Origin: an uncultured Pseudomonadota bacterium
Lineage (GTDB): Bacteria; Oederibacteriota; Muellerivitia; Muellerivitales; Muellerivitaceae
DNA: 64,000 nt
Reading direction: 5' to 3'
NCBI GenBank assembly: GCA_963770835.1
Contig: CAVYRH010000003.1
Span: forward strand, 288,001 to 352,000
The notes under the pieces are model-generated. The model was not told the origin of the DNA, searched no databases, and was given only the letters and a program-made list of their open reading frames with translations. Position 1 is the first letter of the stretch, and each line of letters opens with the position of its first letter. A program made the position numbers and the translations under genes. Shown here in pieces: positions 22,199 to 48,682 of this stretch.

Positions 22199-23998
22199 AT
22201 GTTCTGTAAAAAAGTTCCGATTCTTCTGGCATTGATGGTCTGTGCCTTTGCCTTTCCTGCTTGGGGCAAGATTGCCAGTCTTAAAGGTAAGGAACCTTTT
22301 GTACCCGGTGAAATCCTGGTCCGGTTCAAGGACAACGCATCGCTTCAAGACCGGGCCAAGGCCATGGCCTCCGTGGGGGCATCCCAACCCTTAACCCACC
22401 CTACTTTGGTGAAGATCAAGCTTAAGGCGGGATTGGATATCCAAACCGCCGTAAATCAAATGAAAAACGACCCGTCCGTCCAATATGCCCAGCCCAATTA
22501 CCGGTATTACGCTTTGGCCTGCGGCCCCCCAACCGACCAATACTACGCAACTCCAGTTCCGAATCAGAATGGAGTTTCGGTTTTCGCTAATTGGCCTTTT
22601 ACAAAAATTCAAGCGCCACAGGCTTGGGCATTAGTTTCTACATGTATTACACCACCTGGGGCAGGTAGTGCTTCGGTCACGGTGGCGGTTTTGGATACGG
22701 GTATTTCAAGGAACAACCCCGACCTGAGAACCGTTCCTGCAATCGGTTATAACGCCATTTGTGACGTTCAAGAGCAGGACCCATCCTGCTCTTGCGGTTC
22801 TTCAGTGACGGATTTTGGAGCGACCTATGCTAGCGCAGATGATTTCGGGCACGGGACCTACGTCGCGGGAATTATTGGCGCGGAATGGACTAGCGTGAAT
22901 CCAGAAACCGGTAGTTGCATTTTTACGGCTACTACAAGCGGTTATGCGGGGGTCGCCCCTGGATGCACTTTGCTGGCGGTCAAGGTTTTGGATTGCACGG
23001 GCGGCGGCACTACGGACAGCATTGTGGCGGGTACCGATTACGCCGTGGCGCACAAGGCCAGAGTCTTAAATTTTTCATTAGGTTCCCCTACTGCGGACGG
23101 TTTGGACCAGGCTGAACAAGAAGCCTTGGACAACGCCCTGGCCAACAATTGCGTGATTGTGGCCGCCTCCGGAAATGATTCTTCCAACGGGAATTTAGCG
23201 CCGGTGGATTATCCGGCGGCTTACCCTCCGGTTGTTGCGGTGGGGGCCACGGACCAAAGCGACAATTTGGCGTTTTACTCCAACGGTGGAGCTAATTTGA
23301 AACTGGTTGCTCCCGGTGGTTATGGGGACGGCGCTTTAAATCTTGGCTTTCACCCAGAAACGGATATATTTAGCGATTTTTTATGTCCGCTTTCGGCGGC
23401 CGCAGTCTCGGAAGGGGGGTTCGTCACTGCGCTTGGTGACTCGAATTTCGGGACCGCCGCCGGAACCTCTGCTGCCACTCCCTTTGTTTCCGGTGCCGCA
23501 GCGCTTCTCATGTCCGTTTATCCTAACTTGACCAATACCCAGGTAATCCAGGCCATCATCAACAATACCGACAGCTTGAACGGAAACAAGGGATGGAATC
23601 CCCAAACGGGGTACGGCCGTTTGAACATTTACCAGGCTCTCTTGAACGCCGGTAACGGTGGAGGACAAGTGACTCCTTACCTGGAAACCTTCAACAGCCC
23701 CAATCCCTTTTACACTAAAACCAACGGGACCACCAATATCACCATCGCCATCAGCCAGCCGGCTCCAGTCGAATTAACGATTTGTGACGCTTCCGGAGAA
23801 TTGGTGTTTCATAAGAACTATGATTCGAGCCAATTGGACGACAATCCTTCCAACCCCCAGTTCAAGTCCTATTACGTTTCTTGGGACGGCCGCAACGGGG
23901 CTGGCCAGCCGGTTGTGACGGGGATTTATTTTTACAGTGTGAACGTGAATGGGAAAGTAGGCCGGAACAAAATCGCCCTTATACAGGGAAGCAAGTGA
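22199..23998 (+). CDS. Secreted S8 subtilase with FlgD/T9SS-like C-terminal domain
   Basis: Prodomain FVPGEILVRFK. Catalytic triad in VLDTG, GHGTYVAG, GTSAATP. Tail NSPNPF...WDGRNGAGQPVVTGIYFY...KIALI. Confidence 0.93.
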   Translation: MFCKKVPILLALMVCAFAFPAWGKIASLKGKEPFVPGEILVRFKDNASLQDRAKAMASVGASQPLTHPTLVKIKLKAGLDIQTAVNQMKNDPSVQYAQPNYRYYALACGPPTDQYYATPVPNQNGVSVFANWPFTKIQAPQAWALVSTCITPPGAGSASVTVAVLDTGISRNNPDLRTVPAIGYNAICDVQEQDPSCSCGSSVTDFGATYASADDFGHGTYVAGIIGAEWTSVNPETGSCIFTATTSGYAGVAPGCTLLAVKVLDCTGGGTTDSIVAGTDYAVAHKARVLNFSLGSPTADGLDQAEQEALDNALANNCVIVAASGNDSSNGNLAPVDYPAAYPPVVAVGATDQSDNLAFYSNGGANLKLVAPGGYGDGALNLGFHPETDIFSDFLCPLSAAAVSEGGFVTALGDSNFGTAAGTSAATPFVSGAAALLMSVYPNLTNTQVIQAIINNTDSLNGNKGWNPQTGYGRLNIYQALLNAGNGGGQVTPYLETFNSPNPFYTKTNGTTNITIAISQPAPVELTICDASGELVFHKNYDSSQLDDNPSNPQFKSYYVSWDGRNGAGQPVVTGIYFYSVNVNGKVGRNKIALIQGSK

Positions 23999-24960
23999 AA
24001 TCATTCATTCGAAATTCCGCTGTGTCCATGGTTGTTTTTTTGGCGGCAACGGGGGCCATGGCCGATCAACAAGGCGGGCAGCGGCCTGCGGCCTACCTGG
24101 AACTGGGCGCGGGCGGCGTTCAAAACGCCATGGGCGATGCGGCCGTGGCGGATCGGAACGACCCGGCCTGTGGATTTTGGAATCCCGCCGGATTAAGCGG
24201 ATTAAGGGGATTTCAAATAGAGGATCAATACACCCTGCTGCCCCTGGGCCAACAGCTAAATTACTTCACTTTGGCCAACGGTTTCCGGGACTTCTTTTTT
24301 TATGGAATTTCCTCCTTTATTTACAGCGCCGGCGGAAATATTGAGGCCCGCGTGGGACCTTCCCTCACCCCTGACAGCGTTTTTGGCGACCTGGAAATGA
24401 CTTATTTGGTCTCGGTGGCTTTCCGCTTGAGTCCGCGCTGGTCGATAGGCGGGAATATCAAGATCGAGACGCAAAATTTCGATAACTATAACGGATTTGG
24501 TTTTGGGGAGGATTTGGGACTCCAATACCGTTTGACCCAATACACGACTCTCGGATTAATGATTCAAGACCCCTTCACTATTTTTAACTATGACAATTCA
24601 ACGGAAAACATCGTCCCCATTACCGTAAAGGCCGGTGTGGCCCAACATGACGAGCAATTGAACGCCAAATTGAACTGCGAATTGGATTGGAGCGCCGACC
24701 TCGGGTTTCAGCCCAGACTGGGGATCGAGTGGCGCCCGATGGAGGTTTTGGCTTTGAGGGGTGGATGTTGGGCGGGAGATATTACCGGTGGAATTTCGGG
24801 GGGGACTTTTTCCCTGAATCCAACCGCTGGGTTTGGAATACTGGCGCCACTTGGGTCCGCTGGCGACGGGTTGCTGGAATTCGATTATACCCTTTTGATG
24901 GATCGGATCGTGTCTGGCGGTCTTTTGCACCAAATCGCCATTACGGGGAAATTTCTTTAG
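23995..24960 (+). CDS. PorV/PorQ-like outer-membrane beta-barrel
   Basis: Signal peptide, AYLELGAGGVQNAMGDAAVA..NDPACGFWNPAGL (PorV/FadL N-terminal motif), amphipathic strands, C-terminal HQIAITGKFL. GTGA overlap with the subtilase stop. Confidence 0.8.
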   Translation: MKSFIRNSAVSMVVFLAATGAMADQQGGQRPAAYLELGAGGVQNAMGDAAVADRNDPACGFWNPAGLSGLRGFQIEDQYTLLPLGQQLNYFTLANGFRDFFFYGISSFIYSAGGNIEARVGPSLTPDSVFGDLEMTYLVSVAFRLSPRWSIGGNIKIETQNFDNYNGFGFGEDLGLQYRLTQYTTLGLMIQDPFTIFNYDNSTENIVPITVKAGVAQHDEQLNAKLNCELDWSADLGFQPRLGIEWRPMEVLALRGGCWAGDITGGISGGTFSLNPTAGFGILAPLGSAGDGLLEFDYTLLMDRIVSGGLLHQIAITGKFL

Positions 24961-25888: not shown

Positions 25889-28800
25889 ATGACAAAAACC
25901 TTAAAATCACTTTACCCTCTTGCTTTGTTCGTTTTCCTACAAGCCATTGTTCCTTCTTCCGTTCCAGCCCAATGTCTTTTAAGTGATCTTTTTACAACAC
26001 CGGGCAACCTGGCCATGCCGCCTTGGTTAACTGCAGATGTCGACGATTCCACCGCAGGCGTGGGCCAAACCATTGGGTCCGCCCTCACGATCACGGCGTC
26101 TGGGAATGGCATCGGTTTCGTAAACGCCGTAGATCCTCCCAACGACTCTTTCTACTACATTTACCAGGAGGTGTCAGAAGACAGTGACATAACCCTGCAA
26201 ATTAATGCCGTTCCTACCTCGAGCCCGGACGGTGAGTGCGGGATTATGATGAGGTCCAGCCTTGGTCCAACTACTTTGATGGCTTACATATGTGCGACTA
26301 ATTCCGGCATATATGACTTTGAATACACGGATAGTGGTGGCTCAGAAATTCCATTCAACGATGGGAACTATACCAATCCCTCAGTGGGCTATGTCCGGTT
26401 GGTTCGGCAACAGGATAATTTCACGGGTTATTATTCCCCCGATGGCGTCAATTGGAACGAGGTGGGTTTTAACGAGAGTTCCGGTGGTTCGAGTTTAAGC
26501 ATGCCCTATCCCTATTACGTGGGCATCGCGACCTCCTCGGCTGCTGGCGTAACAGGAACGGCAATCGTCAATAATTTCAGCGTATCCATAGGCGCCTGCA
26601 CTTCTACACCGACGGTCACCAATACGCCGACGAATACCCTCACCAACACCCCCACCTACACGCCCACTGTCACCCCCACCTTTACCCCCACAAACACTCC
26701 CACCAATACCTTTACGGACACTAATACTGCGACGAACACGCCCACTAATACGACGACGAACACGCCGACCAACACGACCACGAATACGGCAACCAATACG
26801 TCTACGAATACAGCCACTTCCACCCCGACGGATCCGGCGGTGTTGGTTAACCCGGGAAGCGGGGAACCACCTAATTCTACCCAGATACCTGGAGCGATGG
26901 ACGTGGCGGCCATGCAAATGGCGGTGACCAATCAGAGCAACGAGGTGGTGACCTTGAATTACGTTGTTTTGACAGCGGTGGATGGCAGCGGGCCCAACAG
27001 CGCTGCTGGAATCACGGCGGTCAATTTGATGAAAGGAACAATCCTATTGGCCAGTTCGACTTATAACGGGAGCGGTCTGGTGACATTGGGCGGATTCCCG
27101 CTGGATACGCTGGGGGCAGCCGGGTCGCCTTCGGCGGCGCAGACTTATACAGTGGAATACGACTTTTCGAGTACGGCACCTGCGGGGATTTACGTCGCCA
27201 ATTTGCAGAGCGGGGCGGCTGTACAAGGAGTGGGACAGGTATCGGGCATGCCCTTGACCGTATCCGGACCACCCCTCGACGGCGCAACTATCACAATTGC
27301 CACTCCGACACCTACGGCGACGAATACCGCAACCAATACCACCACTAATACGGCTACCGACACAGCCACAAAAACGACAACGAATACGCGTACAAACACC
27401 CCAACCTTCACGCCGACCAATACCCCCACCAATACCCCTACAAATACGACGACGAATACTCCGACTCTCACCCCGACGGTCACAGCGACCCTCACTGCCA
27501 CGAATACAGCCACTTCCACGCCTACCCAGCCAGTGGTGAACATAGCGCGGGTGACGCCGCCGGTGGATTCCACGCAGATACCGGGAGCCATGGGGGTGTC
27601 GGTGATGCAAGTGGCGGTGACCAACACCAGCGGTGAATTGGTGGCGTTGAAGGACCTGATATTCCAAGCTTCAGGGCAGGATGCCACCCAGATAACGCAG
27701 GTAAAGCTGTTTAGGGGATCGACCCTGGTGGGTGGAGGGGTTTATTCAGGAGCCAACGGTTTTGTGACCATGGGAGCACCGGCATTGGATACTCTGGCGG
27801 CCGGGGGGAACCAAAGCTACCTTTTGACCTATGATTTTTCGGGTTCGGCCTTGACGGGAGCATATGCGGTTAGCCTAGTGGGGGCGGAAGGAACAGGCCA
27901 AACCAGCGGCCGGCCAATCCAATTGACAGGGGTACCGGCTGGAGGGGCGATCATTACGATTGCGACACCGACGTCCACGGCCACGAGTACGGCGACCAAC
28001 ACCACCACTAATACCCCCACGAACACGGCCACCAGTACGGCAACCTATACGACGACCAATACACCGACGAATACGGCCACGAACACAACCACCCTCACCC
28101 CGACAAGTACTGCGACATTTACCGCTACGAACACAGCTACCTATACGTCGACCAATACGACGACGAACACGCCGACCCTCACCACGACAGCCACGGCGAC
28201 CTTCACTGCCACAAATACAACCACTAACACGGCTACCAATACACCCACGAGCACGCTCACGTATACTGCCACTAACACCGCGACTGATACGGCGACGAAC
28301 ACCACTACTAGTACTGTCACCGAAACACCCACGGACACCACAACCAACACTCCAACGGCCACGACGACCAATACTCCTTCCCAGCCGGCCGTAAGTATTG
28401 CCACTGGAGTTCCAACTCTGGTTGGTTCAACTCAAATCCCTGGAGCGGTCAATGTGCCAGTTTTGGAGGTGGTGGTCAGCAACAACAGCAGCAGCCCACA
28501 AGAGGCAATCAGCTTAACCGGCATAAAATTCACGGCGAGTGGCTCGGGAAATGATCTGACAGGCTTAACGCAAGTGAGTTTGTATAGGGGTACGGCTCTT
28601 GTTCCGGGAAATTTTGTGCAAGGTGGTGTTTATTCCGCCGACAATGGGGCCGTGACGCTGGGATTACCGCTTGTGGACATTATTTCGGCTACAGCCGCCC
28701 AAACCTATACGGTTGCTTATGACTTCTCGACAACCGCCCCACAAGGAACCTATTCGACGGCGATTTTACTCGGAACGGATGTACAAGGGATAGGACAGAC

Positions 28801-31657
28801 CTCACTACGGTCACTCCAAGTCTCAGGTGCGCCTGTTAATGGAGTGACGATCACGATTGCCACCCCGACCGCTACGGCGACGAACACGGCGACCAACACG
28901 ACAACGAACACGCCTACCGATACCGCCACTAATACCGCGACGAATACGGCCACGAATACCACTACGAATACGCCTACGAATACTGCTACGGGCACGTCGA
29001 CTAACACCGCGACGAACACCACTACCAATACTCCGACGAATACTGCAACAGACACGGCGACGAATACGCCAACGAACACCCCGACGAATACGGCCACGAA
29101 CACTGCCACCAATACGGCGACTAACACCGCTACCAATACCGCGACGCTTACGACGACGGATACCGCCACCGACACAGCTACGAATACAGCTACCTCCACG
29201 CCGATTGATCCGCCGGTAGGGATAGTGTCGATCTGGACCCCTGTGGATCCCGTGGTGATCCCTGGCACGTCGGGAGTGACGGTGATGAAATTCCAGGTGA
29301 CGAACAACAGCACGACGGAAGCGGTGTCTTTCCTGTCCTTGGTGTTGACGGGGACGACAACGGGAACGGCGGACGACGCAACGGGAATAGCTCAGGTGAA
29401 ACTCTTTGACACAACAGAGCAAGTGACGGGTGGGACCTACGCGGTGGGATCGGCGCCCTTGACGCTGGGGTTGGCGCCGAAAGAGATGCGGGGGATCGCG
29501 TCAGCGCCGCAAACCTATGTGGTGACCTACGATTTTTCAGTGACCCAATTGGCAGGGAGTTACGCGGTAACAGTTGGGGTGGGAGGGTTGACGGGAACGG
29601 GGGCCACGAGCGGAAAGCCAATAGCTGTCTCAGTCCTGCCGATTGGAGGAGATGCAGTCACGGAGTCCCTGCCGACTTCCACGCCGACGAATACGGCTAC
29701 CAATACGGCGACAAATACCACAACCAATACGCCGACGAACACGGCTACGAACACAACGACGAACACGACCACCGCCACGCCAACCAATACGGCGACTAAC
29801 ACTCCTACCAACACTGCGACCAACACGGCCACGAATACCGCAACCAATACGGCGACGAACACGGCCACTAATACGGCGACAAAAACAGCAACTAATACGC
29901 CGACGAACACGGCTACGAACACAACGACGAACACGGCCACCAATACCGCGACGCTTACGGCGACCAATACCGCCACGAACACGACTACTAACACAGCGAC
30001 CAACACGGCTACCGATACCACGACGAATACGGCTACTAACACGGCGACAAATACCGCTACTGCCACCGCTACGAATACGGCCACGAACACAACCACCAGT
30101 ACTGCGACAAGTACGGCTACCAATACCTTCACCACAACCCCCACCAGCACCGCTACCCCCACTCCGACATCGACACCCTTGCCACCCGACCATTTGCTTT
30201 TCCTGACGCCCATTCCTCCATTTACCGCAGGAGTTACTACGAGCTTTACGGTCCAAGTTCTTAATTCAAATGGAGTTACGGTGGCTTTCCCGACGGCCGT
30301 AACCATGGATTTGACATCTAGTACTACAGGCGATTACAGTTTCTCGCTTTCTTCAGGCGGGCCAACCATCACTTCTTGTACCCTCCCGGCCGGAGCCGTT
30401 TCCCTGACACTCTTTTACACCGGATACAAGGTGGAAACCTCGAACCCGAACTTGAAGGTAACGGTCCTTTCGTCCATTGCCAACCCCTCGGTTTCGCAGG
30501 CTATTGCGGTTTCGCCGGCCGCTTATTCCAAGCTTCAGGTCTTGTTGCCTAATCAGGTTTCGGATCCGGGTAAACCCTTCTCCGATCCTTTGGGGCGGAT
30601 TGGAACCCCCAATTCGGTGGAGGCAGGAAGTTTTGTGACCGCCACAGTTAACGCCGTTGATAAGTACTTCAACTTGATCAGCACAATCATAGATACAGTG
30701 AACTTCACCACGAGCGACGCGGCCGCTCCACCCGAGGGTTCGGCCAACCTGACGGGAGGCATCGCCACCCATCCTGTGGTTTTCCTCACTGAAGGCGGTC
30801 AAACCTTGACTGCAACGGATCCAAACACGGCTCCCCCTTCAACGGGCACTAGCGACACGATTACCATATTGCCGGGGGTCAACAGCACGCTGTTGAACGT
30901 GGTTCATGGTTCGCCGAACCTTTCCACCGTGACCTTGGGTGAAAATGGAGTCGAAGTGCTTACCTTTAATCTTTCGGTGCAACAAGGGACCGATGCCATC
31001 AAGATCAATAGTTTGACCCTGAATGCAGAAGACCAGGACGGAGTTGGCGTTGCGATGGACACGGCTTTCCAGAACCTGATCCTAACGGGAGGGGCCCTGC
31101 CGATCACCGTTAATACCAGTCTCATAGGCCCGGTTACCGCTGTTTTTCCTGGCCCAATCACGGTTAATGCTGGATCCAACTCGCTAGCTTTGACCGTGAC
31201 TGCCGATATCCTGGCCAATGCTTCGGCAAAAACCGTAAGGCTAAGCTTGGGAAAAACCGGTATCGTCGCTCAAGACGCTTCGGTTGGTAGTCCAGTAGGA
31301 TTCACGACCTTCGGTGATTCCACCGGCTTTCCCATGAATTCTAATCTCATGCTATTCAGGGCGACTGACGTGACAAGTACCTACGGTAATTATCCCAATC
31401 CGTTCCACCCTGGGCAGGGAAGCACGACCATCGAGTTCAACCTGCAGTCCGCATCCACTGTTTCTTTAGTGCTCTATGATGTCATGGGCGAAAGGACGGC
31501 GACCTTGATTGACAACCAAACCCTTCAGGCGGGATTGCAGAGGGTTTCTTGGGACGGACGGAACGGGATGGGAGCTTATGTGTTAAATGGCATTTATTAC
31601 GCTCAACTAATCGTCGACGGCCAAAAATACATGCTTAAAATCGCGGTGGTGAGATGA
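25889..31657 (+). CDS. Giant surface protein: ConA/DUF1349-like lectin head, four repeated beta domains, Thr/Asn-rich linkers, FlgD/T9SS-like tail
   Basis: Signal peptide; GIMMRSSL..YVRLVRQQDNFTGYYSPDGVNW..YVGIA; four copies of STQIPGA..V.N...TYxVxYDFS; tail NYPNPF...WDGRNGMG..VLNGIYY..KIAVVR. Confidence 0.88.
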   Translation: MTKTLKSLYPLALFVFLQAIVPSSVPAQCLLSDLFTTPGNLAMPPWLTADVDDSTAGVGQTIGSALTITASGNGIGFVNAVDPPNDSFYYIYQEVSEDSDITLQINAVPTSSPDGECGIMMRSSLGPTTLMAYICATNSGIYDFEYTDSGGSEIPFNDGNYTNPSVGYVRLVRQQDNFTGYYSPDGVNWNEVGFNESSGGSSLSMPYPYYVGIATSSAAGVTGTAIVNNFSVSIGACTSTPTVTNTPTNTLTNTPTYTPTVTPTFTPTNTPTNTFTDTNTATNTPTNTTTNTPTNTTTNTATNTSTNTATSTPTDPAVLVNPGSGEPPNSTQIPGAMDVAAMQMAVTNQSNEVVTLNYVVLTAVDGSGPNSAAGITAVNLMKGTILLASSTYNGSGLVTLGGFPLDTLGAAGSPSAAQTYTVEYDFSSTAPAGIYVANLQSGAAVQGVGQVSGMPLTVSGPPLDGATITIATPTPTATNTATNTTTNTATDTATKTTTNTRTNTPTFTPTNTPTNTPTNTTTNTPTLTPTVTATLTATNTATSTPTQPVVNIARVTPPVDSTQIPGAMGVSVMQVAVTNTSGELVALKDLIFQASGQDATQITQVKLFRGSTLVGGGVYSGANGFVTMGAPALDTLAAGGNQSYLLTYDFSGSALTGAYAVSLVGAEGTGQTSGRPIQLTGVPAGGAIITIATPTSTATSTATNTTTNTPTNTATSTATYTTTNTPTNTATNTTTLTPTSTATFTATNTATYTSTNTTTNTPTLTTTATATFTATNTTTNTATNTPTSTLTYTATNTATDTATNTTTSTVTETPTDTTTNTPTATTTNTPSQPAVSIATGVPTLVGSTQIPGAVNVPVLEVVVSNNSSSPQEAISLTGIKFTASGSGNDLTGLTQVSLYRGTALVPGNFVQGGVYSADNGAVTLGLPLVDIISATAAQTYTVAYDFSTTAPQGTYSTAILLGTDVQGIGQTSLRSLQVSGAPVNGVTITIATPTATATNTATNTTTNTPTDTATNTATNTATNTTTNTPTNTATGTSTNTATNTTTNTPTNTATDTATNTPTNTPTNTATNTATNTATNTATNTATLTTTDTATDTATNTATSTPIDPPVGIVSIWTPVDPVVIPGTSGVTVMKFQVTNNSTTEAVSFLSLVLTGTTTGTADDATGIAQVKLFDTTEQVTGGTYAVGSAPLTLGLAPKEMRGIASAPQTYVVTYDFSVTQLAGSYAVTVGVGGLTGTGATSGKPIAVSVLPIGGDAVTESLPTSTPTNTATNTATNTTTNTPTNTATNTTTNTTTATPTNTATNTPTNTATNTATNTATNTATNTATNTATKTATNTPTNTATNTTTNTATNTATLTATNTATNTTTNTATNTATDTTTNTATNTATNTATATATNTATNTTTSTATSTATNTFTTTPTSTATPTPTSTPLPPDHLLFLTPIPPFTAGVTTSFTVQVLNSNGVTVAFPTAVTMDLTSSTTGDYSFSLSSGGPTITSCTLPAGAVSLTLFYTGYKVETSNPNLKVTVLSSIANPSVSQAIAVSPAAYSKLQVLLPNQVSDPGKPFSDPLGRIGTPNSVEAGSFVTATVNAVDKYFNLISTIIDTVNFTTSDAAAPPEGSANLTGGIATHPVVFLTEGGQTLTATDPNTAPPSTGTSDTITILPGVNSTLLNVVHGSPNLSTVTLGENGVEVLTFNLSVQQGTDAIKINSLTLNAEDQDGVGVAMDTAFQNLILTGGALPITVNTSLIGPVTAVFPGPITVNAGSNSLALTVTADILANASAKTVRLSLGKTGIVAQDASVGSPVGFTTFGDSTGFPMNSNLMLFRATDVTSTYGNYPNPFHPGQGSTTIEFNLQSASTVSLVLYDVMGERTATLIDNQTLQAGLQRVSWDGRNGMGAYVLNGIYYAQLIVDGQKYMLKIAVVR

Positions 31658-33363
31658 TGCGAAAAATTACACGGTTTAAAGTTCGCGGCTCTAGGTTAAA
31701 ACCGTTCAAAATGAGAAAGACAGAAGTTGTCAGGCGACTTTCAAATGCTCTTTGTGCTTTGGCAATGATTCTTATCCCCGGGATTGTCCGGGCCCAAGTG
31801 GCCACCGGCGGAGTGGTATCACCCTTCAGCTTGGGAGGGTCCGCCAGAATGCTTGGGATGGGAAACACTGGAGCGGCGATCACGGGCGACGGGGATGGGT
31901 TCTTCGAAAACCCTGCGGTGCTGGCCACCCTGGATGAACACCAGATTCTCACCTTCCATGCGCCTTTATTCCAGGATACCCTTTACGATGCTCTAGGTTA
32001 TTTCAATCCGATCACTCTCCACAGCAGTTTCGGACTGGCGGTTGCCCGTCTGGGGGTTTCCAATATTCTTCAAACCCAGAACAATGTCCTGGCCCTTTCC
32101 ACCTTTTCCGATGAGCAATGGCAAGGACTCTTAGGCTACGGTTTCCGCGCCGTGGAAGGTTTGGACGTCGGCGGTACCGTGAAATATGAATTCGAACAGC
32201 TGGATTCCTATCAGGGTAGCGGAGTTGGATTGGATTTGGGCCTGCTTTACCACTTTTCGGATAACCCGCAGGATTTCAGCCAAATCGGCTATAAAAACAT
32301 TACCCTGGGTTTTTCGGCCTCCAACGTGCTTCAGCCTCAAACCAAACTTTTCGAGGATCCCAGCGTTCCTTTAAGAGTCTATCGCCCCGCCCTCTCCTAC
32401 CTTTACCGGTTTCCCTCCTCCACTAGCGAGCTTTGGTTGACCACCGAAGGGGAGGTGCAGGACGGCGGAACCAACCTCGTCAAAGGCGGGATGGAGTACG
32501 GCTGGAACCAAACGGTCTTCGCGAGGGCGGGTTTCGACGGTGTGAGCCCGACGGTGGGCGTGGGTCTGCGGTTATCGGATTTTCAACTGGATTATGCCTT
32601 TAACGAGCGCGATTTAGGCGCACTCCACCGTTTTTCATTGAGCTATCGTTTCGGGCGTTACATCGATCCCCTTCAAACTCAAAAGCTCGATCTTTTGAAA
32701 TCGGTGGCCCGTGGTTATACGGCGGCAAAGGATTATGACCCCGCCATCAAAGCTTGGGAGGATGTATTGAAGGAATTTCCCGATGATGGCGAAGCATCCC
32801 GTTCGCTCCAGGATCTTCAACGAAAACGCAAAAATGCCGTCCAAGACCAACTGGATCTTGCGCGTTCCGCTATGAGCCGAGGAGACTTTGAGAAAGCCCT
32901 GCCCTATATTGCAAAGGTCCTTAGCCTGGACCCCAGTAATAAGGGTGCCAAAGAACTCCTGAAGCAGGTCGATCAAAAAACCCTGATCTCCTCCAATTAC
33001 ACGCGAGGAGTGGAAGCTTATAGCCAAGAAGATTTTGGGCTGGCGGTTCAATATCTTCAGACGGTTTATGAGGTGGACCCTCATTACCGAGACGTGGAAC
33101 ATCTCTACCATGACGCCCAAAGTTATTATCAACCTTTGCAAACCATGCCCAAGGAATTAACGGCCCTCTACGCCAAGGGAGTGGATTATTATATGAATGG
33201 CGAATACCAGAAAGCCATCGACGCCTGGGAGAGTCTGTTGGAAAAAAATCCTAAAAATTATCTAGTGCGCCGAAATATCGAGGAAGCGAAAACCCGTCTC
33301 AGTGAAAAGGCTCCGCCCCACCCTGCGGTTTCCTCTGGCAACAAATCGGGGGATAGGCCTTGA
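31654..33363 (+). CDS. PorV/PorQ-like beta-barrel fused to C-terminal TPR array
   Basis: LGGSARMLGMGNTGAAITGDGDGFFENPAVLA. Barrel ends LGALHRFSLSYRFG, followed by ~220 aa of TPR helices. ATGA overlap with the upstream gene. Confidence 0.85.
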   Translation: MMRKITRFKVRGSRLKPFKMRKTEVVRRLSNALCALAMILIPGIVRAQVATGGVVSPFSLGGSARMLGMGNTGAAITGDGDGFFENPAVLATLDEHQILTFHAPLFQDTLYDALGYFNPITLHSSFGLAVARLGVSNILQTQNNVLALSTFSDEQWQGLLGYGFRAVEGLDVGGTVKYEFEQLDSYQGSGVGLDLGLLYHFSDNPQDFSQIGYKNITLGFSASNVLQPQTKLFEDPSVPLRVYRPALSYLYRFPSSTSELWLTTEGEVQDGGTNLVKGGMEYGWNQTVFARAGFDGVSPTVGVGLRLSDFQLDYAFNERDLGALHRFSLSYRFGRYIDPLQTQKLDLLKSVARGYTAAKDYDPAIKAWEDVLKEFPDDGEASRSLQDLQRKRKNAVQDQLDLARSAMSRGDFEKALPYIAKVLSLDPSNKGAKELLKQVDQKTLISSNYTRGVEAYSQEDFGLAVQYLQTVYEVDPHYRDVEHLYHDAQSYYQPLQTMPKELTALYAKGVDYYMNGEYQKAIDAWESLLEKNPKNYLVRRNIEEAKTRLSEKAPPHPAVSSGNKSGDRP

Positions 33364-35759
33364 ATCTCTACGAATTCTTCACCCGGATTGTTTCCCACAT
33401 TCCCTTGGAACCCAAGCGGAGAAACTACCGCTTGGAGGTGGAAGCCAAGGATATTGAGCTTCTGACCATCAAGGACTTCGTCCAGCGAGTCTGCGACGCC
33501 GCCGGTTGTACCCCGAAGGAAACCTCCAACATCAAGCTGGCCATTGACGAGGCTTGCAGCAACATCATTCGGCACGCTTACAAGGGAAAGGAAGGCGGGA
33601 AGATTACGCTGGAGATGGGGATCGGCTTCACGGACCTGAAAATAAAGATTATCGATTACGGCACTCCGTTTGATTTCAGGAGCGTCAAGGACCCCGATCT
33701 CAACCATTACGTCGATATCGGGAAAAAAGGCGGCTTAGGCATTTGGCTTATCAAAAAGGTCATGAATCGGGTCCAATATAAGTCCTACCAGGACCGCAAT
33801 GAGCTAATCCTTTCTCGCCGACTCTCGAAGGCACCCCCCAAGGAACTGGGCCTCAAGAAGGGAACTTATTCAGTTTCGGCAAAGTTCTCCTTGGGCTCCG
33901 CCGTCCTGGTTATATTGATTACCCTTACGGCTTATTTTTACCTGATCAACCGCCAGCAAACCTTCACTCTCAACCAGCAAAAGAGCAAAGTTACCACTTT
34001 ACTCCAGGCCATCGCCGCTGATGCGGGGAGCCCTGTCGTCCTAAAAAATGACTTGGAACTGAACCACCTTATCCGGGAAGTGCAGGAGGAAGACAAGGAA
34101 AGAGTCTTGAGTTACGTCTTTATCGTCGGAAGTGAAGGGAAATACCTTGCCCATTCCGATTTAAGCCAGCTTTTTAAACCTTACAAACCACTTCCGGGAG
34201 TTCAAATTAAACGAGTTTCAGGTGTTCAAATTTTCCGAATTTCCGCTGACGAAGGGCCCCTGACGGATTATGCCTCCGTCGTTTTTTTCCGAAGTCAGGC
34301 AGTTGGCGAGGTTCATGCGGGTGTCACGGATGAGTCCCTGCACCAGTTGAACACCCGGATTAGGGCCGATATACAAAGGTTAATGTTGTGGATCGCCGTT
34401 ATCAGCATTGCGGGGTTGTACCTTCTTTCCCGAATCTTCATCCGGCCTTTCCAGAAGATACTGGAAGGCATCCAGGCCGTAAGCCAGGGAGACCTCAACG
34501 CAAAGATCGAGGTGGAAAGCCAGGATGAATTCGGCCTATTGGCCAAGATTTTTAACGAAATGACGGTCAAAATCCAGGATTCCCAGGTCGGGCTTGTGGA
34601 ACAGGAACGCCTCCAAAAGGAAATGCAGGTGGCTCAGGAAATCCAACATACCCTTTTGCCCGCCTCCTTCCCCCAAATAGAGGGTTATGAGATCGGGGCC
34701 ACCTACCGGGCGGCTAAGGAAGTGGGCGGTGACTATTACGACTTTTTTTGGGTGGATCCCACGACTTTGGGCATCGTGGTAGCGGACGTTTCGGGCAAAG
34801 GCGTCCCAGGATCTCTCGTCATGACCATGATTCGTACCGCCATGAGGCTGGAAGCCCGGGGAAACTGGTCGGCCTCTGATGTGTTGGCAAAGGTCAACCA
34901 ACATGTCACCTCCGACATGAAGCGGGGCATGTTCGTAACCATGTTTTACATTATTTTGGATTCCCGGGATCGTTCCATTAATTTTGCCAGCGCGGGGCAC
35001 AACCCGATGATCCTCTATCGGGAAAAAACTAAAGAGGTTTATTTCCTCAAGCCCAAAGGTTTCCCGGTTGGAATCGATCTTCCGGAAGCAGATATGTTCG
35101 TCAAAAACATGACTCTCCAGAAAGTCAGTCTTGAAAAAAATGATATGCTCATCATCTATACGGATGGTATTACGGAAGCCATGAACCCCGAGAAAGAGCA
35201 GTTCGGAGAAGAAAGGCTTATCCGCCTCATTAAAGAGAACTCGACTCTCACCCCGGCCGAGTTTGTGGAAAGACTGAATGAGGCGATTGCCCAGTTTACC
35301 CGTGGGGCCGAACAGAATGATGACATCACCGTCGTCGCCATCAAAGAAAAAATGAAAGTGGAGCAGGTGGAATACAAATTCCGGAAGAAATTGATCGATT
35401 TGGTCGAGAAGAAAGGAATGTCAATCGCGTCGGCCTGCCGTCAGATGAACATTTCGCCTAAAACTTATTACCGGTATAAAAAACTTTTTGATGAGAAAGG
35501 AAGAGCGGGATTGAAACCGGTTTTATCCAAGCGGACGGGGTTGATGGAGCTTTCTCAACCTCAGCAACAGGCGGTTCTGGCCCTCGTGAGGGAGCATCCT
35601 GAATACAATTCGAAACGAATCACGGAAGAGATTGGGAAAAGCACTACCCCTCCCCAAAAAGTGGAACACCGACTGGTCCTGGCCTTTTTAAAACGAAAGG
35701 GCTTGCAGGATTTGAAGGCGCGAAAAGCCCTTGAGGTCAACGAGGTTGACAGGGTCTAA
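33360..35759 (+). CDS. Membrane RsbW-type kinase - periplasmic sensor - HAMP - SpoIIE/PP2C phosphatase - HTH fusion
   Basis: LAIDEACSNIIRHAY, DYGTPFD, GGLGIWLIKKVM (HATPase_c_2). Two TMs. DEFGLLAKIFNEM (HAMP). EVGGDYYD, ADVSGKG, AGHNP, YTDGITEA, DDIT (PP2C). SIASACRQMNISPKTYYRY (HTH). TTGA overlap with the upstream gene. Confidence 0.92.
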   Translation: MNLYEFFTRIVSHIPLEPKRRNYRLEVEAKDIELLTIKDFVQRVCDAAGCTPKETSNIKLAIDEACSNIIRHAYKGKEGGKITLEMGIGFTDLKIKIIDYGTPFDFRSVKDPDLNHYVDIGKKGGLGIWLIKKVMNRVQYKSYQDRNELILSRRLSKAPPKELGLKKGTYSVSAKFSLGSAVLVILITLTAYFYLINRQQTFTLNQQKSKVTTLLQAIAADAGSPVVLKNDLELNHLIREVQEEDKERVLSYVFIVGSEGKYLAHSDLSQLFKPYKPLPGVQIKRVSGVQIFRISADEGPLTDYASVVFFRSQAVGEVHAGVTDESLHQLNTRIRADIQRLMLWIAVISIAGLYLLSRIFIRPFQKILEGIQAVSQGDLNAKIEVESQDEFGLLAKIFNEMTVKIQDSQVGLVEQERLQKEMQVAQEIQHTLLPASFPQIEGYEIGATYRAAKEVGGDYYDFFWVDPTTLGIVVADVSGKGVPGSLVMTMIRTAMRLEARGNWSASDVLAKVNQHVTSDMKRGMFVTMFYIILDSRDRSINFASAGHNPMILYREKTKEVYFLKPKGFPVGIDLPEADMFVKNMTLQKVSLEKNDMLIIYTDGITEAMNPEKEQFGEERLIRLIKENSTLTPAEFVERLNEAIAQFTRGAEQNDDITVVAIKEKMKVEQVEYKFRKKLIDLVEKKGMSIASACRQMNISPKTYYRYKKLFDEKGRAGLKPVLSKRTGLMELSQPQQQAVLALVREHPEYNSKRITEEIGKSTTPPQKVEHRLVLAFLKRKGLQDLKARKALEVNEVDRV

Positions 35760-35808
35760 AAGGCCAGTGATAATAAAGCCGCTATCGGCCCTAATTTTCG
35801 GAGGAAGC

Positions 35809-36171
35809 ATGGAAAATATTTCGGTTAATATTTCGGAGCATCCGCAAAACAAGGATATCACGCTTCTTTCCGTTAAAGGGTTCATTGATACGACCACAGC
35901 TCCGGAATTCGAAAAAAAATTCCTTTCGCTATTGGGAGAAAAAAAGTTCAAGCTGGTGGTGGATTTGAAGGATGTGAATTATATCAGTAGCGCTGGCTGG
36001 GGGATTTTTATCAGTGAAATCAAGCGTATCCGCAACCAAAAGGGTGATTTGGTGTTGGTGGGCATGAATCCGGAAGTTTCGGAGGTTTTCGAACTTTTGG
36101 AATTTAATACGATATTGAAATCGTTCCCGAATGTTGAGGCGGCAATTAAAAAGGGGTTCGAGAAAGCCTGA
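35809..36171 (+). CDS. STAS anti-anti-sigma factor (RsbV/SpoIIAA-like)
   Basis: VKGFIDTTTAPEFE, LVVDLKDVNYISSAGWG (phospho-Ser motif), MNPEVSEVFELL. GGAGG RBS. Confidence 0.93.
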   Translation: MENISVNISEHPQNKDITLLSVKGFIDTTTAPEFEKKFLSLLGEKKFKLVVDLKDVNYISSAGWGIFISEIKRIRNQKGDLVLVGMNPEVSEVFELLEFNTILKSFPNVEAAIKKGFEKA

Positions 36172-36264
36172 ACCCGTAAAACGGGGACGAGTTATAACGA
36201 CCCGGGACAAGCCGGTTTTTGCGGCACCGGGCGAAGGATTTGAAGATCCGGAACTTGGAAAATA

Positions 36265-37401
36265 ATGGAATCGGCAGCTTTAACCTCCCTCATTGAAATT
36301 GAGGGAAAAAACTTTACCTTGGAGACATCGCCCATTACGGGGAAAAACCGCATTTCCTCCCTTGTTCAGCTGGGTGGAAGGGCCATTTCCCTTCGGGAAG
36401 TCGAACTGCCTGAGGGATTGGATGATGATTCCCTTAAGCGCTATTTGCAGGAAACCCACCGAATCCGCTCGGTGGAGCTAGAATCCCTTTTTCGCCTGAA
36501 TAAGAAGATTGACGAAAAACCTACGGCGGATGCCTGCTGGAAAATTGGAGTTATCTTTCTCTCTAATGGTTTCTACGAAGACTCCCGCCAGAAATTCCTC
36601 AAAGCCATTGAGCAAGACCCCCGCCACCTACAAGCGATTAAAAACTACGGGATTGCTTTGACCCTTATGGAGGATTATGACGGCGCCTTTGCCAGCCTTA
36701 ATCAGGCCCGTGAGTTGGGTCCATCTTTTGCCGATATTTATTACCACCTTGGAAACACCCACTTATATAAACGTGAGCTTGATGAGGCTGTTCAAGGCTA
36801 TCTCCAGGCTCTTCAAATCAACCCACGTTACGCGGATGCCCGCTTAAGACTGGCCACTGCCTGTGTAGGTTATCTGGCGCAATCTTCCAATCAGCTGGAG
36901 GGAGGGAAGGTTTTGGAGCTTTCCGAAAGGGCGAAAACTGAAGCCGAGACAGCGGCAACTTTAAACCCCAAGGTTCGAAACAGGGCTTATTTGATGGCGA
37001 TGGATTATCTTCGAAACAAGAAATATTCCCAAGCATTCCAGGCTTTTATTGAGGTCCGCCCTAAATATGTTCCTCGAATCGGCGATGAAATCATCTTTTT
37101 CTTTACGTTAACACTTTTATATGGAAGTGAAGGAATCGACCTTCAAATGACAGAGCAATACATCGATAAATTGACGAAGGTAATCGAAGAATACCCGCAT
37201 TATGCCGACCTGCATCACCATTTGGGGACCGCTTATCTGATCAAGTGCCGTTTTGATGTGAGCCGGTCTTTGAAAGAATTCAAGAAAGCCTTGGAAATCA
37301 ATCCCCAGTTTCAGAAGGCCTTAGGGAATTCGGCGGACACGGAGGACCTTCATAAAAAGGTTCTGATAGTCTTAAAAAAGGCAATTATACCGCAGGGTTA
37401 A
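36265..37401 (+). CDS. Cytoplasmic TPR protein with small N-terminal alpha/beta domain
   Basis: TPRs (FADIYYHLG, ALQINPRYADA, YPHYADLHHHLG, ALEINPQF). No signal peptide. Confidence 0.85.
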   Translation: MESAALTSLIEIEGKNFTLETSPITGKNRISSLVQLGGRAISLREVELPEGLDDDSLKRYLQETHRIRSVELESLFRLNKKIDEKPTADACWKIGVIFLSNGFYEDSRQKFLKAIEQDPRHLQAIKNYGIALTLMEDYDGAFASLNQARELGPSFADIYYHLGNTHLYKRELDEAVQGYLQALQINPRYADARLRLATACVGYLAQSSNQLEGGKVLELSERAKTEAETAATLNPKVRNRAYLMAMDYLRNKKYSQAFQAFIEVRPKYVPRIGDEIIFFFTLTLLYGSEGIDLQMTEQYIDKLTKVIEEYPHYADLHHHLGTAYLIKCRFDVSRSLKEFKKALEINPQFQKALGNSADTEDLHKKVLIVLKKAIIPQG

Positions 37402-37483: not shown

Positions 37484-37867
37484 TTAAGATTCAGAGGGAG
37501 AGGATAAGGAGTAATTGGTTTCCAGAAAATGAATGTGCTCAGGGGTTACTTTCTCGAAGTTGACTCCATAAGCGAAGCGCCCCATCGATTTCATTGGGTT
37601 CTTTCGTGCCCAAACCACTTTTCCCAGGTAAATGACTGAATGGCTGCCATCGAGCGAATCTAATTCCAATGAGACGCCCGTGTTGTTGTCAATGGCTTTA
37701 TTCGAGTAAATCTGGGCCCCGGTGAAGCTGACATTAACCAATTGGGCGCGGAAAATATTACCGTCACTGGCGGTATTGGCAACCCGCCCCTTGATGGATT
37801 TGACCATCACCACTCGCCGGTTTGTCCTCTTGTTATTTTTATTTTGAGGACGAATAATTTTTTTCAT
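37484..37867 (-). CDS. Stand-alone PilZ-domain protein
   Basis: RxxxR (KRTNRR) and NxSxxG (NVSFTG) c-di-GMP motifs; GKVVW...YGVNF. Confidence 0.85.
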   Translation of the reverse strand: MKKIIRPQNKNNKRTNRRVVMVKSIKGRVANTASDGNIFRAQLVNVSFTGAQIYSNKAIDNNTGVSLELDSLDGSHSVIYLGKVVWARKNPMKSMGRFAYGVNFEKVTPEHIHFLETNYSLSSPSES

Positions 37868-41913: not shown

Positions 41914-44900
41914 ATGAATTTAGACTTTAAAACTTGTTTAATAAATCTAAGAAGTTTTGACCTTTCTAAACTTCGAATAGTTTTCCTTTTGTTAATGACG
42001 TCGAGTACTTCCCCCCTGATGGCTCAAGTGCTTGGCAGTGCGAACCTTTGTCCGACTGGAGGAGGTCCGACCACCTATTCCGCGCACGCCACAACTTATA
42101 CCCTGGGTGGTACGGGAGCCTGTGGTTATCCTTCCGGATCCTTTGATCCGAATTATTACGCGGCTATTGCCGGAACCAGTAGTTACGGGGGGGATTACCA
42201 GAGCGGTGAAATTTGCGGGGCCTGCGCGGCTGCGTATTACGGCTCAAATGCCGTTACGGTAATGATTATTGATAATTGCTCTACTTGTGCTGACTCCAAC
42301 CAACTCGACCTGGGGCCTGTTGCCTTCAATGCCTTGACTGGCAATACGACGGGCGATTATGCCATCAACTGGAATTTTGTTCCGTGCCCATTGAGCCTGA
42401 TGACAGGCGATTCCTCCGGCGATATTTCCTACGAGTGGAAGCAATGCGGAAATGCGAATTATAATCCGATTCAATTTCTAGACACCTTATTTCCCATCAC
42501 GGCCGTCGGTTGGAGCACTGGCGCCACAGGCCCCTTTACCGCGCTTCAGGACGACTATAATAATGTTGGCGGGAATTCCTATTGGTCGAATGCCGGCCAA
42601 AACTTGAACGGGACTAACGGCCCCTTTTATTTTGCTGTTACGGACGCAAGAGGTGATACGGTCACATTAGGACCTATTAGCGGTACTACTTGTGGTGTCG
42701 CAGCGGCGAATGCCCAATTTAATGGTTGCGGGCCGACGGCCACGCCTACGATAACTGGGACACCCACTCGGACTGATACGCCCGGTGGCCCTCCTACCCC
42801 TACTTATACTTTTACCCCCGTCTCCAGCGGTGACTGCGTTTACGATTATGGGTCGGGTGCCGCCTGTACTTTTACCCAAAACGCCTCAATCGACAATTGC
42901 ACGACTTCCAGTAGTTCGCCTAGCACTCAAGCCATTAACCAGTTTTACGCTTATGGGGCATCGGGCGTGTCGGTTCTTTACTGCAGTGGCGACTCAGAAG
43001 GACCCAGTGGATCGGGCGCAGGAGGCGGATCCAACACGGTCAACCTTCAATGCGCTCCTCCCGCCAATGCCACCATCGTGGCGGCTTTTGTGGACGTCGT
43101 AGAATATAACGGCAACGCCAGCCCAAGCTTGGCCCCCAGCACGGGTCCTATTGTTGTTGCGGCTACCACGACAGGGGCCGGGGTGGCGTCGGGGTATGCC
43201 AATTTGTGGAATAAGTGGGACGACCCCCGGTATGGCTGGCAAGCCAGTTCTTATGGACAAACGGCCTGGAACGTTCGTTACAGCGTTCCTCTCAGCGCTA
43301 TTACTACCGGCACGACTTCCTATAGTGTTTCTTATCCCAACATTGGAAGCAATACAGTTTGGTCGGCATCGATGGTGGTGGTTTATACCATACCAGCGCC
43401 TAATGTTTGCGGCGCCATAGCTTTGGATGACGGCCTATTTTATTGGGACACCTTGGATGGGGAAGGACAGCAAGTTCTAAATGAAGGCATTACTCCCTGG
43501 GCCCCAACCTTGGACATGGGCTGTGTGGATCCCACCACGAGCTGTGCCACCAACCAGTTTTCCGTCATGGGAGGGAACCAATACGGGAGCTGCGCGAGCA
43601 ACCCAACCACCTTCCTGGACCAATTTTACGGCAATACTTCGGGAAGCGTTACCTTACAGTCCACTGCGGCCAATGAATGGAACCAGGCTACAGGGGGGCA
43701 GTGCGGAAACCTTTATGCTTTTGACGGAACCTACTCTGGGGTTCCTTTGTCAGGGACGGATAAAATGACCTGGGGGTTGGGGCAAGCCCTGGATTCGGGA
43801 GGAAAGCAAGAGTACTGGGTAAATATGCTGGCGGCCTATTGTAATGCAACTTGCATAACCCCTACCCCAACACCCACCCCATCTAAGACTCCGACACCCA
43901 CAGTACCCCCAACTTCTACCCCCACAAGAACAACTACTCAAACGGCTACATCGAGCACGACTTCGAGTGCTACTTCTACCACCACCAGGACGGCCACCCA
44001 GACGGCCACGACAACAGCCACCTCATCCACAACATCCACGGCGACTTCCAGCGCCACTTCTAGTGCTACATCCTCGGCGACAGCTTCAGCGACCACCAGC
44101 GCAACTTCCACCACCACCCGAACAGCTACCCAGACGGTTACCACAACAGCCACCTCGTCCACAACCTCCACGGCGACTTCCAGTGCCACTTCTAGTGCTA
44201 CATCCTCGGCGACAGCTTCAGCGACCACCAGCGCGACTTCCACTACTACCCGAACAGCTACCCAGACGACCACTACAACAGCTACCTCATCCACGACATC
44301 CACTTCAACGGTCACGGCCGTTGCGACCGCCACTAGTACTTCCGCAGCTACCGCTACGGCGACAGCGGTTGCTACAAGCACTGCCACATCCGTTCCCACG
44401 GCTACGGCCACTGCTATCCCAACTTCCACCAGTACCAGTACGGCAACCTCCATACCGACGAGCACTTCCACATCCACTTATTCGACAACGGCTACCGCTA
44501 CTGCCACCTCCACTTTTACCGAAACTTCGACAGCCACTTCTACCGCCACGGCGGTTCCGTCGGCCACGGCCACCAGCACCGCTACCATGACTGCAACCAA
44601 AACAATGACCGATACCCCCATTGACACCTCTACGGCAACTCAGACGGCAACCGATACGGCGACATCCACGGCCACTAATACCTTTACTGTCACGAACACG
44701 ACAACAAGCACATCCACGGCGACTGCAACCCGGACAGCTACTTCCACCAATACGGTGACGGACACCTATACACCCTCTAATACCGCGACCAATACAGCCA
44801 CAAATACAATGACGTCCACCGCAACCAACACCCATACGGCGACTAATACGGCTACCATGACGGCGACAGCCACAGCCACCAATACCTATACTTCTACTTC

Positions 44901-46704: not shown

Positions 46705-46779
46705 TTTAACCGTTCTCCGGGACATTTACGTTTCTCCCAATGTTTGATATTCTCCTGGCATTCCATCCAAGAGAAGGAC

Positions 46780-47367
46780 ATGAAAAACCTCCGCTCTCCG
46801 ACCGTTACAATGCCTTTGTTATTTCTAATGTTTTCGTTTCCGAGGTTGATTTCTGCTCAAGAAAGTGCTGATTCATCCCATCTGAGCGAGCCGAAATTAA
46901 AACCCATTGAAATCGAGTATCACACCCTGGGGGGGCTACAATATTCCCTAGACGGAAGGCTTCTAACCCGCTATCAGGATCTCCGGAATATTGTTTTGCC
47001 GTTAGGGGATTATGAGTCGGAACGGTTATTGAAACGATCCGAATCCTCCGATGTGAATTCTCAAATTTTTGGTACGGTAGGTTTTGTAAGCTTCGTGACG
47101 GGTGTGGCGGGTTTATTGACCTCGGGTTCCAGACAGCAAACTCCTTTTTGGGTTACAGCCATCGGTGGAGGTGTTTTAATCGATGTTGGAAGTCTGTTCC
47201 AATCGGAAGCCCAGACAACGAAATTTACCTGTGTCCAACGCTACAACCGGTTCGCAAGGGGAGAAGAGCAGATACTTCCCAAGGGACCGACGGATGAAAA
47301 GTCTCTTTTAAACTTTGGCTCCGAGGACGATTCCAAGACCTCAAAAGGGGGAGAGTATCCTCAATAA
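46780..47367 (+). CDS. Hypothetical exported/membrane protein
   Basis: AAGGA RBS, signal peptide, Gly-rich hydrophobic hairpin followed by VQRYN. Confidence 0.7.
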   Translation: MKNLRSPTVTMPLLFLMFSFPRLISAQESADSSHLSEPKLKPIEIEYHTLGGLQYSLDGRLLTRYQDLRNIVLPLGDYESERLLKRSESSDVNSQIFGTVGFVSFVTGVAGLLTSGSRQQTPFWVTAIGGGVLIDVGSLFQSEAQTTKFTCVQRYNRFARGEEQILPKGPTDEKSLLNFGSEDDSKTSKGGEYPQ

Positions 47368-48078: not shown

Positions 48079-48085
48079 GAGACCT

Positions 48086-48652: not shown

Positions 48653-48682
48653 AACTATTTCATTAAGCGAGGGTTTGTTTTT

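Follow-up and report, generated by a model that had tools for sequence, protein, structure and literature searches.

C-terminal domains (CTDs) of secreted cargo proteins bind outer-membrane barrels of the PorV and PorP type, often encoded by a neighbouring gene. RsbW kinases and PP2C phosphatases act on serines of STAS proteins. In FecA-FecR-FecI, NlpE-CpxA, RcsF-IgaA and YfiBNR, a protein of the outer membrane reaches into the periplasm and controls a regulator in the inner membrane, and the parts of TonB-dependent signalling are a 22-stranded TonB receptor, a FecR-type anti-sigma factor and an extracytoplasmic function (ECF) sigma factor. To our knowledge, sensing of non-importable polymers and surfaces by diderm bacteria is known for few systems only. 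Type IX secretion system (T9SS) shuttle and anchor barrels include PorV, PorP/SprF with type B CTDs, and the PorP-PorE pair (PMC10994853, PMC12618676, PMC9143113). Here we analyse a locus in a 64,000-nucleotide stretch of DNA (the window: positions 288,001 to 352,000 of contig CAVYRH010000003.1, assembly GCA_963770835.1) from an uncultured bacterium, in which genes for a predicted CTD-bearing surface protein (the cargo), a PorV-family barrel with a fused TPR arm, an inner-membrane receptor, a STAS protein and a cytoplasmic TPR protein follow one another. As in the T9SS, the barrel is a 14-stranded member of the FadL family, a CTD cargo gene lies directly upstream and the genome encodes a divergent SprA-like protein; unlike there, the barrel bears a TPR arm and a receptor gene follows it, and the available text of the sources above describes no signalling role for a shuttle. 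Plain coordinates are window positions, G000 is the genome of the window, and L and f numbers denote related loci and families.

A conserved, modular cassette

The preliminary description of this DNA had proposed a five-gene trans-envelope signalling unit. Its five same-strand open reading frames are real, as are the overlaps of genes 1-3 (ATGA at 31654, TTGA at 33360) and the 49-nt spacing ahead of the STAS ATG. All on the forward strand, they encode a 1922-aa cargo (25889-31657) with a signal peptide (judged by eye), tip, repeats, stalks and C-terminal domain; a 569-aa barrel of the PorV/PorQ family with its TPR arm (31654-33363); a 799-aa receptor (33360-35759); a 120-aa STAS protein whose start is the ATG behind GGAGGA (35809-36171); and a 378-aa TPR protein in which no signal peptide was seen, a loosely linked accessory (36265-37401). 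Profile searches matched NCBIfam PorV_fam plus TPRs on the barrel gene, HATPase_c_2, sCache_3_2, HAMP, SpoIIE and HTH_28/29 on the receptor, a STAS domain on gene 4 and TPRs on gene 5.

The receptor was searched for in 99 genomes of its own phylum, 121 of the phylum of G099 and 86 Calditrichota (the phylum of G100). It is near-universal in the Calditrichota sample (80/86 genomes) and common in the G099 phylum (88/121, E 1e-90). Loci were taken for most own-phylum orthologues and for 20 from each other phylum, long contigs being preferred; 99 were tabulated and 11 dropped (three Cache-less receptors, three contig ends, five paralogues), leaving 88 full-length. Directly upstream of the receptor lies a gene that ends with the arm's last TPR unit in 86 of the 88 and a barrel in 84, across three phyla with differing flanks. 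On the other side, 68 loci have STAS no further than 1.7 kb downstream, and 30 have the cytoplasmic TPR gene no further than 1.5 kb. Of 91 barrel-receptor pairs, 72 carry a CTD gene ahead of the barrel. Families f8, f11, f13 and f18-f23 have barrel and receptor only, without cargo or STAS; in one large lineage this pair stands alone, flanked by RNase R and hisD. From these counts, the stable core is the armed barrel plus receptor, usually with cargo: three genes rather than five. The cassette is real, conserved and modular, and its order extends far past close relatives.

In barrel-less loci (L043, L146-150, L159, L184, L205) the place of the barrel is occupied by an exported-looking TPR protein carrying the arm's last unit, its N-terminal hydrophobic leader judged by eye. 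On a quick PP2C tree of 50 sequences with about 10 deep receptor branches, 8 branches have a barrel or such a stand-in beside the receptor. At L191 the absence of a barrel probably reflects rearrangement, a likely orthologue lying elsewhere in G131. Some loci hold inserted genes: a ParA-sized gene separates receptor and STAS at L090 and at L186-L194, which amounts to 9 of the 20 G099-phylum loci plus L090 (confirmed with Pfam once, otherwise assigned by size and place), and at L092, L094, L152 and L184 a beta-propeller/OmpA protein is encoded between the genes for TPR and Cache-PP2C.

One lineage has lost the cassette. G015 (99% complete), G028 (66%) and G017 (82%) lack barrel, cargo and STAS orthologues genome-wide; the best barrel match in this lineage has E 2e-16, versus 1e-213 in G025, and no close STAS of the YISS[AG]GWG type was found there. 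Their receptors have lost Cache and HAMP and kept kinase, PP2C and HTH. The cytoplasmic TPR gene stays behind in these three genomes, as it does in G025, which belongs to the genus of G015: there the old site has the TPR gene only, and cargo, barrel and receptor occupy a contig of 9.7 kb, with a receptor that falls among those of another genus. Either a three-gene unit moved or the contig is misbinned. In G021, G007, G009 and G016 receptor and barrel likewise seemed to be absent together, but these cases were set aside as assembly breaks, because their cytoplasmic TPR or STAS gene is at a contig end. G003 was uninformative, only a paralogue having been found, and G001 was left out, its receptor being frameshifted near a contig end. 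Extra copies of the cytoplasmic TPR protein, 37-38% identical, occur at L285 (G003:C347) and G007:C120.

The last two genes are the looser part. A sigma-70-like promoter, TTGACA-N17-GATAAT, lies across the last receptor codons (35746-35774, forward strand; 11/12 positions). An 11/12 match recurs in 17 of 23 related loci, whereas in G000 a score of at least 11 is reached by just 26 of 4026 upstream windows, and the GTTGACA spelling accounts for 0.8% of Val-Asp dicodons. Only this conserved site was used, because promoter counts across the region do not exceed those of shuffles (11 vs 10.9). It suggests that a separate promoter probably serves STAS and the cytoplasmic TPR gene, so that separate transcripts are indicated for these two genes and not for the first three. 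With the TPR gene near so few receptors, STAS absent beside the receptor in 20 of the 88 loci and this probable promoter, the single five-gene unit was given up.

Barrel arm, receptor, cargo and a second cassette

The barrel protein scores 90.7 bits on NF033709 (PorV_fam, cut-off 90) and 24.1 bits on the PorV equivalog NF033710 (cut-off 250): it is a PorV-family member, not PorV itself. Its predicted fold (predicted local distance difference test (pLDDT) 89.9) has 14 strands and an N-terminal plug (barrel domain, 31798-32652), with a helical TPR arm beyond the last strand (32668-33306), and the top PDB matches are the PorV chains 8gl6_F (E 2.7e-12) and 6h3i_F. An even strand count places the part C-terminal to a barrel in the periplasm; since the number here is even, the arm should be periplasmic. 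The earlier suggestion that the products span every compartment thereby gains a modelled outer-membrane barrel reaching inwards. Arm length varies twofold (157-321 aa in intact genes of relatives), and pairwise identity along the arm climbs from 17% to 33% toward the tip. The last TPR unit (33151-33306, LYxxGVxxYxxGxYxxAIxxWxxxLxxxPxN) is the most conserved part of the arm and a candidate sensor-binding tip. Similar terminal units were seen on Type II/IV secretion ATPases fused to TPRs, one behind a PorV-like gene at L275 and one at G000:C5:149478-151781.

The receptor consists of an RsbW-type kinase (33456-33815), a first transmembrane segment (TM1), an sCache domain (about 33945-34379), TM2, HAMP, a PP2C/SpoIIE phosphatase (34593-35357) and an IS481-like tandem HTH (35379-35729), for which the PDB held no match. 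It is the sole RsbW-type kinase and the sole SpoIIE phosphatase found in G000. The kinase and phosphatase modules beside a serine-bearing STAS protein, noted earlier, have intact catalytic motifs: the N, G1 and G2 boxes of the kinase (E64, N68, H72, D99, G101, G124/125/127) and the PP2C metal aspartates (D458, D476, D602, D654, D655) are invariant (n=24), and among 83 receptor sequences the G2 motif is found in 80, DVSGKG in 82, YTDG in 81 and DD[IV]T in 81. The Cache domain scores 30.8 bits on sCache PF17203, over the cut-off, and its top full-length PDB match is DcuS (E 7e-4). Of the DcuS carboxylate pocket, which we take to be Arg-x-x-His plus a distal Arg, the Cache profile lacks both arginines and retains the His in 64% of 89 sequences.

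The STAS protein scores 74.7 bits on TIGR00377, over the cut-off, and carries the motif YISSAGWG (Y[IV]SSAGWG in 69 of 80 STAS sequences); Ser61, by its position relative to RsbV and SpoIIAA, is presumably the phospho-acceptor. G000 has eight STAS genes, three of them close paralogues of the window STAS. The orphan paralogues at G000:C26:659967, C14:41983 and C4:349760 keep the YISS[AG]GWG motif, two with C-terminal extensions and one with a hydrophobic end. STAS proteins with a receptor-like HTH tail occur at L031-L034, L173-L175, L178-L180 and L206-L225. SigB/F/G-type sigma factors (TIGR02980) exceeded the cut-off in none of five genomes, the control being detected in one, and none stands at the window locus. 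A SigB-type sigma factor therefore does not seem to be the final output, which probably lies in an effector bound by STAS or in DNA binding through the IS481-like HTH carried by the receptor and elsewhere by STAS.

No Pfam or NCBIfam family matched anywhere on the 1922-aa cargo. Its C-terminal sorting domain (31364-31654; NYPNPF...WDGRN...KIAVV) is kept among cognate cargoes, and the last ~97 residues resemble 17 further G000 proteins, including the FlgD_ig/Por_Secre_tail proteins at 22199 and 41914; orthologous cargoes have weak matches to FlgD_ig or Por_Secre_tail. Four ~150-aa repeats are set between five Thr/Pro/Asn-rich stalks (565 aa). The tip (25970-26608) matches GH43_C2/DUF1349 (concanavalin-A-like) clusters with a score of 0.96, so 'lectin-tipped', as the protein was first described, is true of the fold and goes too far beyond it; a sequence search of the PDB with the tip gave weak, unrelated matches only. 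The tip is variable, being present in 2 of 72 other cognate cargoes, many of them broken at contig ends. Outside Bacteroidota as it is, G000 encodes about 90 CTD-like proteins alongside its 25 PorV-like barrels, and a 1994-aa SprA-like frame (G000:C5:192794-198778; E 5.8e-34) that is divergent and under the family cut-off. The SprA profile is over the cut-off in G203 and G253 and in none of 14 control genomes. Of the PorK/N ring and PorL/M motor, GldN (PF19841) was looked for and found in none of five genomes, the positive control being silent too.

The input recurs with another output. A second G000 cassette (C10:20833-26091; L226:6834-12092) comprises a 450-aa CTD cargo, a 591-aa armed barrel, a histidine kinase of TM-periplasmic-TM-HAMP-HisKA layout and an OmpR-type regulator; it is kept in family f1, with an AraC regulator upstream. 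A search of 99 genomes turned up its barrel in 20, and the kinase follows at 21 of 23 places, the other two being cut by contig ends. The kinase's periplasmic domain and the Cache domain are homologues (HH probability 96.2%, against 0.5% for a reversed control), as are the arm tip of the second barrel and the arm of the first (99.2%); the cargo tips of the two G000 cassettes have no significant BLAST similarity to each other (E 0.15). On sequence comparison, then, a histidine kinase cassette shares the same input, and the output appears exchangeable. Among the 25 G000 barrels two have a long fused arm, and a HAMP gene is among the next two genes for both of them versus 0 of the 23 others, given 16 HAMP genes in 4038 and one long-armed barrel that served as search seed. 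In five further genomes, a HAMP gene lies within 5 kb downstream of 8 of 16 armed and 5 of 121 other barrels among the matches listed.

Some paralogous Cache-PP2C loci of other families combine malectin/CBM9 cargoes and a LacI regulator; others have MCP, PilZ or GGDEF genes. L151, L160-L162 and L185 comprise cargo, armed barrel, Cache-PP2C, STAS, RsbW and a LacI-type regulator, with malectin/CBM9 in the two cargoes scanned, which is the most direct hint at polysaccharide sensing. An Avs2-like anti-phage gene (L161:1222-5109; under the cut-off) comes immediately after a paralogous cassette.

Other features of the window and genome stand apart from the cassette. Window positions 22199-24960 hold a CTD-bearing S8 peptidase and then an arm-less PorV-like barrel, a second cargo-shuttle pair kept in families f1 and f2. 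A 1557-aa CTD protein is encoded after the SprA-like gene on C5, and a 1596-aa protein at 41914-46704 has an expansin EXLX1-like N-terminus, a Thr-rich stalk and FlgD_ig/Por_Secre_tail domains. A PilZ gene (37484-37867, reverse strand) is convergent with the locus and retained throughout family f1, even in lineages without the cassette; as a core member it was rejected, being seen downstream in family f1 only. A TPR-bearing secretin gene precedes a Bat-type DUF58/vWA/TPR/BatD/MoxR cluster (3496-16104), and YceI-like, AurF-like diiron and RRM genes are consecutive at 46744-50088.

A possible outside-in chain and its rivals

The preliminary description had proposed that cargo docked on the barrel signals through the TPRs to the sensor. 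On balance we lean towards such a chain, in which the cargo is held on its own PorV-like barrel by its CTD, the arm reaches the Cache domain and the receptor shifts STAS phosphorylation. Export would go by way of the divergent SprA-like translocon, after which the CTD would keep the cargo on its barrel in the manner of type B cargoes on PorP-like barrels (PMC9143113, PMC12618676, PMC10994853), and the last TPR unit of the arm may contact the Cache domain directly. What is read would be whether the barrel is loaded with cargo, or whether the cargo tip is engaged, and the signal would pass inward via TM2 and HAMP, biasing phosphatase over kinase; in the sister cassette the same input would be passed to a histidine kinase. 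The original proposal is supported by synteny, by the PorV-like barrel with its presumably periplasmic arm, by the intact kinase and phosphatase beside STAS, by a weakly predicted arm-Cache contact and, in a single lineage, by the joint loss of barrel and Cache domain; the five-gene unit is not supported. The co-folding check gave arm plus Cache a score of 0.36, against 0.01 for the best control; its runs had at least 78% of contacts in common and a partner pLDDT of at least 83. Of 157 solved pairs 116 came up to the mark it reached, as did 2 of 215 mismatched ones; at scores up to 0.60 these were 18 of the 157 solved pairs and both mismatched ones. The guess was preset from synteny and co-loss, so its odds are raised modestly. 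In its favour are the kept gene order, the re-use of the input with a histidine kinase, the HAMP genes behind long-armed barrels, the co-loss, the TPR stand-ins for missing barrels, conservation that climbs toward an arm of varying length, the missing pocket arginines and the paralogous malectin/CBM9 cassettes. Comparative evidence thus gives good grounds for a trans-envelope reading, and modelling slight ones.

Possible rather than probable is a wider claim, that the cassettes represent a new class of surface signalling in several little-studied phyla, combining a shuttle barrel on a giant sensor or adhesin, a TPR rod, a ligand-free Cache receptor and a plug-in output. The cargo tip would then be swappable, and the length of the arm tuned to each lineage's periplasm. 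Contact with polysaccharide or a surface, well beyond the membrane, could in that case be felt with no need of TonB or an ECF sigma factor.

Several observations weigh against the arm-to-sensor chain. The Cache-less receptors form one clade (100% in the Shimodaira-Hasegawa-like approximate likelihood-ratio test, SH-aLRT), so the co-loss is a single event; two or three events were rejected, an earlier rejection by the approximately unbiased (AU) test having used the TPR gene, with the ancestral G025 copy outside the group. Co-fold passes of the kind obtained are oftener wrong than right unless the guess is likely beforehand, and the switch protein itself probably has a separate promoter. The p-value of the five-genome comparison is untrustworthy, because the best 150 of 247 matches were listed and both genomes and profile were picked via the cassette. 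Of its eight armed barrels lacking a HAMP gene, one adjoins a Cache-HAMP-PP2C gene missed by Pfam and one an RsbW/STAS cluster without receptor; six of the 16 armed barrels have no signalling neighbour, so the arm has other uses or unlinked partners. Separate tip-unit TPR genes adjoin barrels without a receptor on G000 C11 and C16. Conversely, the Cache-PP2C paralogues L153 and L156-158 are without a barrel or TPR neighbour, none was seen at L096 either, and G305 retains Cache where the arm was not found. Other barrel-TPR proteins have been proposed, in the available text of PMC8407342 and PMC9143113, to serve transport or anchoring.

Of the rivals, a secretion-feedback sensor survives best. 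The CTD of PorA binds PorY in Porphyromonas (PMC12152298, available text), and here Cache might bind the cargo CTD or the unloaded barrel, reporting export failure or envelope assembly and nothing outside the cell. It would suit this that the conserved cargo parts are the CTD and the barrel-proximal region, with a varying tip, and that the cargo was lost together with Cache. We nonetheless think it unlikely: 19 of 91 barrel-receptor pairs, mostly of one large lineage and in a few cases at contig ends, have no adjacent cargo, and in some loci barrel and cargo are replaced by barrel-less TPR proteins.

A co-regulated operon without contact deserves little credence. Cache would sense a small molecule and the switch control the adhesin, with the arm anchoring the barrel to the cell wall or to the secretion machine as in PorE/PorP. 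The domain is DcuS-like, PorP-PorE (TPR) anchoring is documented (PMC9143113, available text), OmpA-domain genes lie between barrel and receptor in the paralogues L092, L094, L152 and L184, and the six armed barrels without a receptor fit too. This leaves unexplained why just Cache and HAMP were lost when the barrel was, why the same arm tip and Cache are re-used with a histidine kinase, and why barrel-receptor pairs persist within housekeeping operons; the missing pocket arginines and the weak arm-Cache co-fold also speak against it.

Signalling could also run from inside to outside, and LapD/LapG/LapA offers an analogous logic. Contact would exist, and the state of the receptor would decide on the surface protein's retention, release or placement, while HTH and ParA would link the complex to the nucleoid; the IS481-like HTH on the receptor and, in several lineages, on STAS would accord with this, as would the ParA gene of the nine G099-phylum loci and L090. 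We give it even less credence, as the second cassette ends in an ordinary inward-signalling kinase-OmpR pair, no protease belongs to the conserved set, and HTH and ParA are missing from many orthologues. Inherited gene order without functional link, for which the many barrels per genome (25 in G000) and the shared gene order of kin might be cited, is scarcely credible and largely refuted by an arrangement kept over three phyla with changed flanks, in paralogues and with a different output, and by three genes that moved together in G025, unless that contig is misbinned.

Were the outside-in chain correct, it would be a new sensing route made of type IX secretion parts. PorV-like paralogues outside Bacteroidota would gain a role beyond shuttling, and Cache one as a sensor of protein contact. 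With two cassettes of different output, a single genome offers a ready comparison of cognate and non-cognate pairs of small soluble domains.

Relation to described systems

The preliminary description knew of no characterised system joining these modules, and none turned up in the literature searched: no paper joined a PorV-family barrel to a Cache receptor or a partner switch, in a search that left subscription journals mostly uncovered and excluded supplements. All parts are known; their connection, argued from comparison and models, would be new and is unproven. Relative to the T9SS, G000 has an SprA under the family cut-off, and GldN was not found (no positive control).

SypE takes its input through a receiver domain. 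Unlike it, the window receptor has a TM-Cache-TM-HAMP input, a C-terminal IS481-like HTH and a tie to a barrel and surface protein. What the two share, on the available text for SypE/SypA of Vibrio fischeri (PMC10120452), is a kinase and a phosphatase acting on a downstream STAS protein, opposing activities in one chain. The GGDEF, MCP or PilZ genes by some paralogues recall SiaA/B/C/D, where SiaD stands beside SiaC (PMC7278518, available text). Of the RsbU/V/W sigma-B switch the locus has kinase, PP2C and STAS, and lacks the SigB/F/G-type sigma factor. DcuS/CitA-type sCache sensors share the fold of the window Cache, which is missing their pocket arginines.

Two comparisons concern the barrel. 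In Treponema pallidum, TP0548, TP0859 and TP0865 likewise join a 14-stranded barrel to a C-terminal periplasmic TPR bundle (PMC8407342); unlike the arm here, theirs is a short three-helix bundle, proposed for nutrient hand-off to a TRAP transporter, and the available text describes no cargo or receptor link. Such FadL-like barrel-TPR proteins are listed as UPF0164 in the available text of PMC13749626. PorA-PorY-PorX-SigP of Porphyromonas gingivalis also brings together a T9SS cargo with PorV and a sensor kinase of the inner membrane; in the available text of PMC12152298, which also names NlpE and RcsF, the CTD binds this sensor in the periplasm and PorV is dispensable, whereas here the genomic link is between barrel arm and sensor.

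With TonB-dependent signalling the locus has no such domains in common, its barrel having 14 strands and its receptor a Cache domain. FecA-FecR-FecI, NlpE-CpxA, RcsF-IgaA and YfiBNR resemble it in logic only: they have no parts homologous to the FadL-family barrel, TPR arm and Cache receptor of the input, the sensor here would be a separately exported giant protein, and the outputs are PP2C/RsbW-STAS or a kinase-regulator pair instead of an ECF sigma factor.

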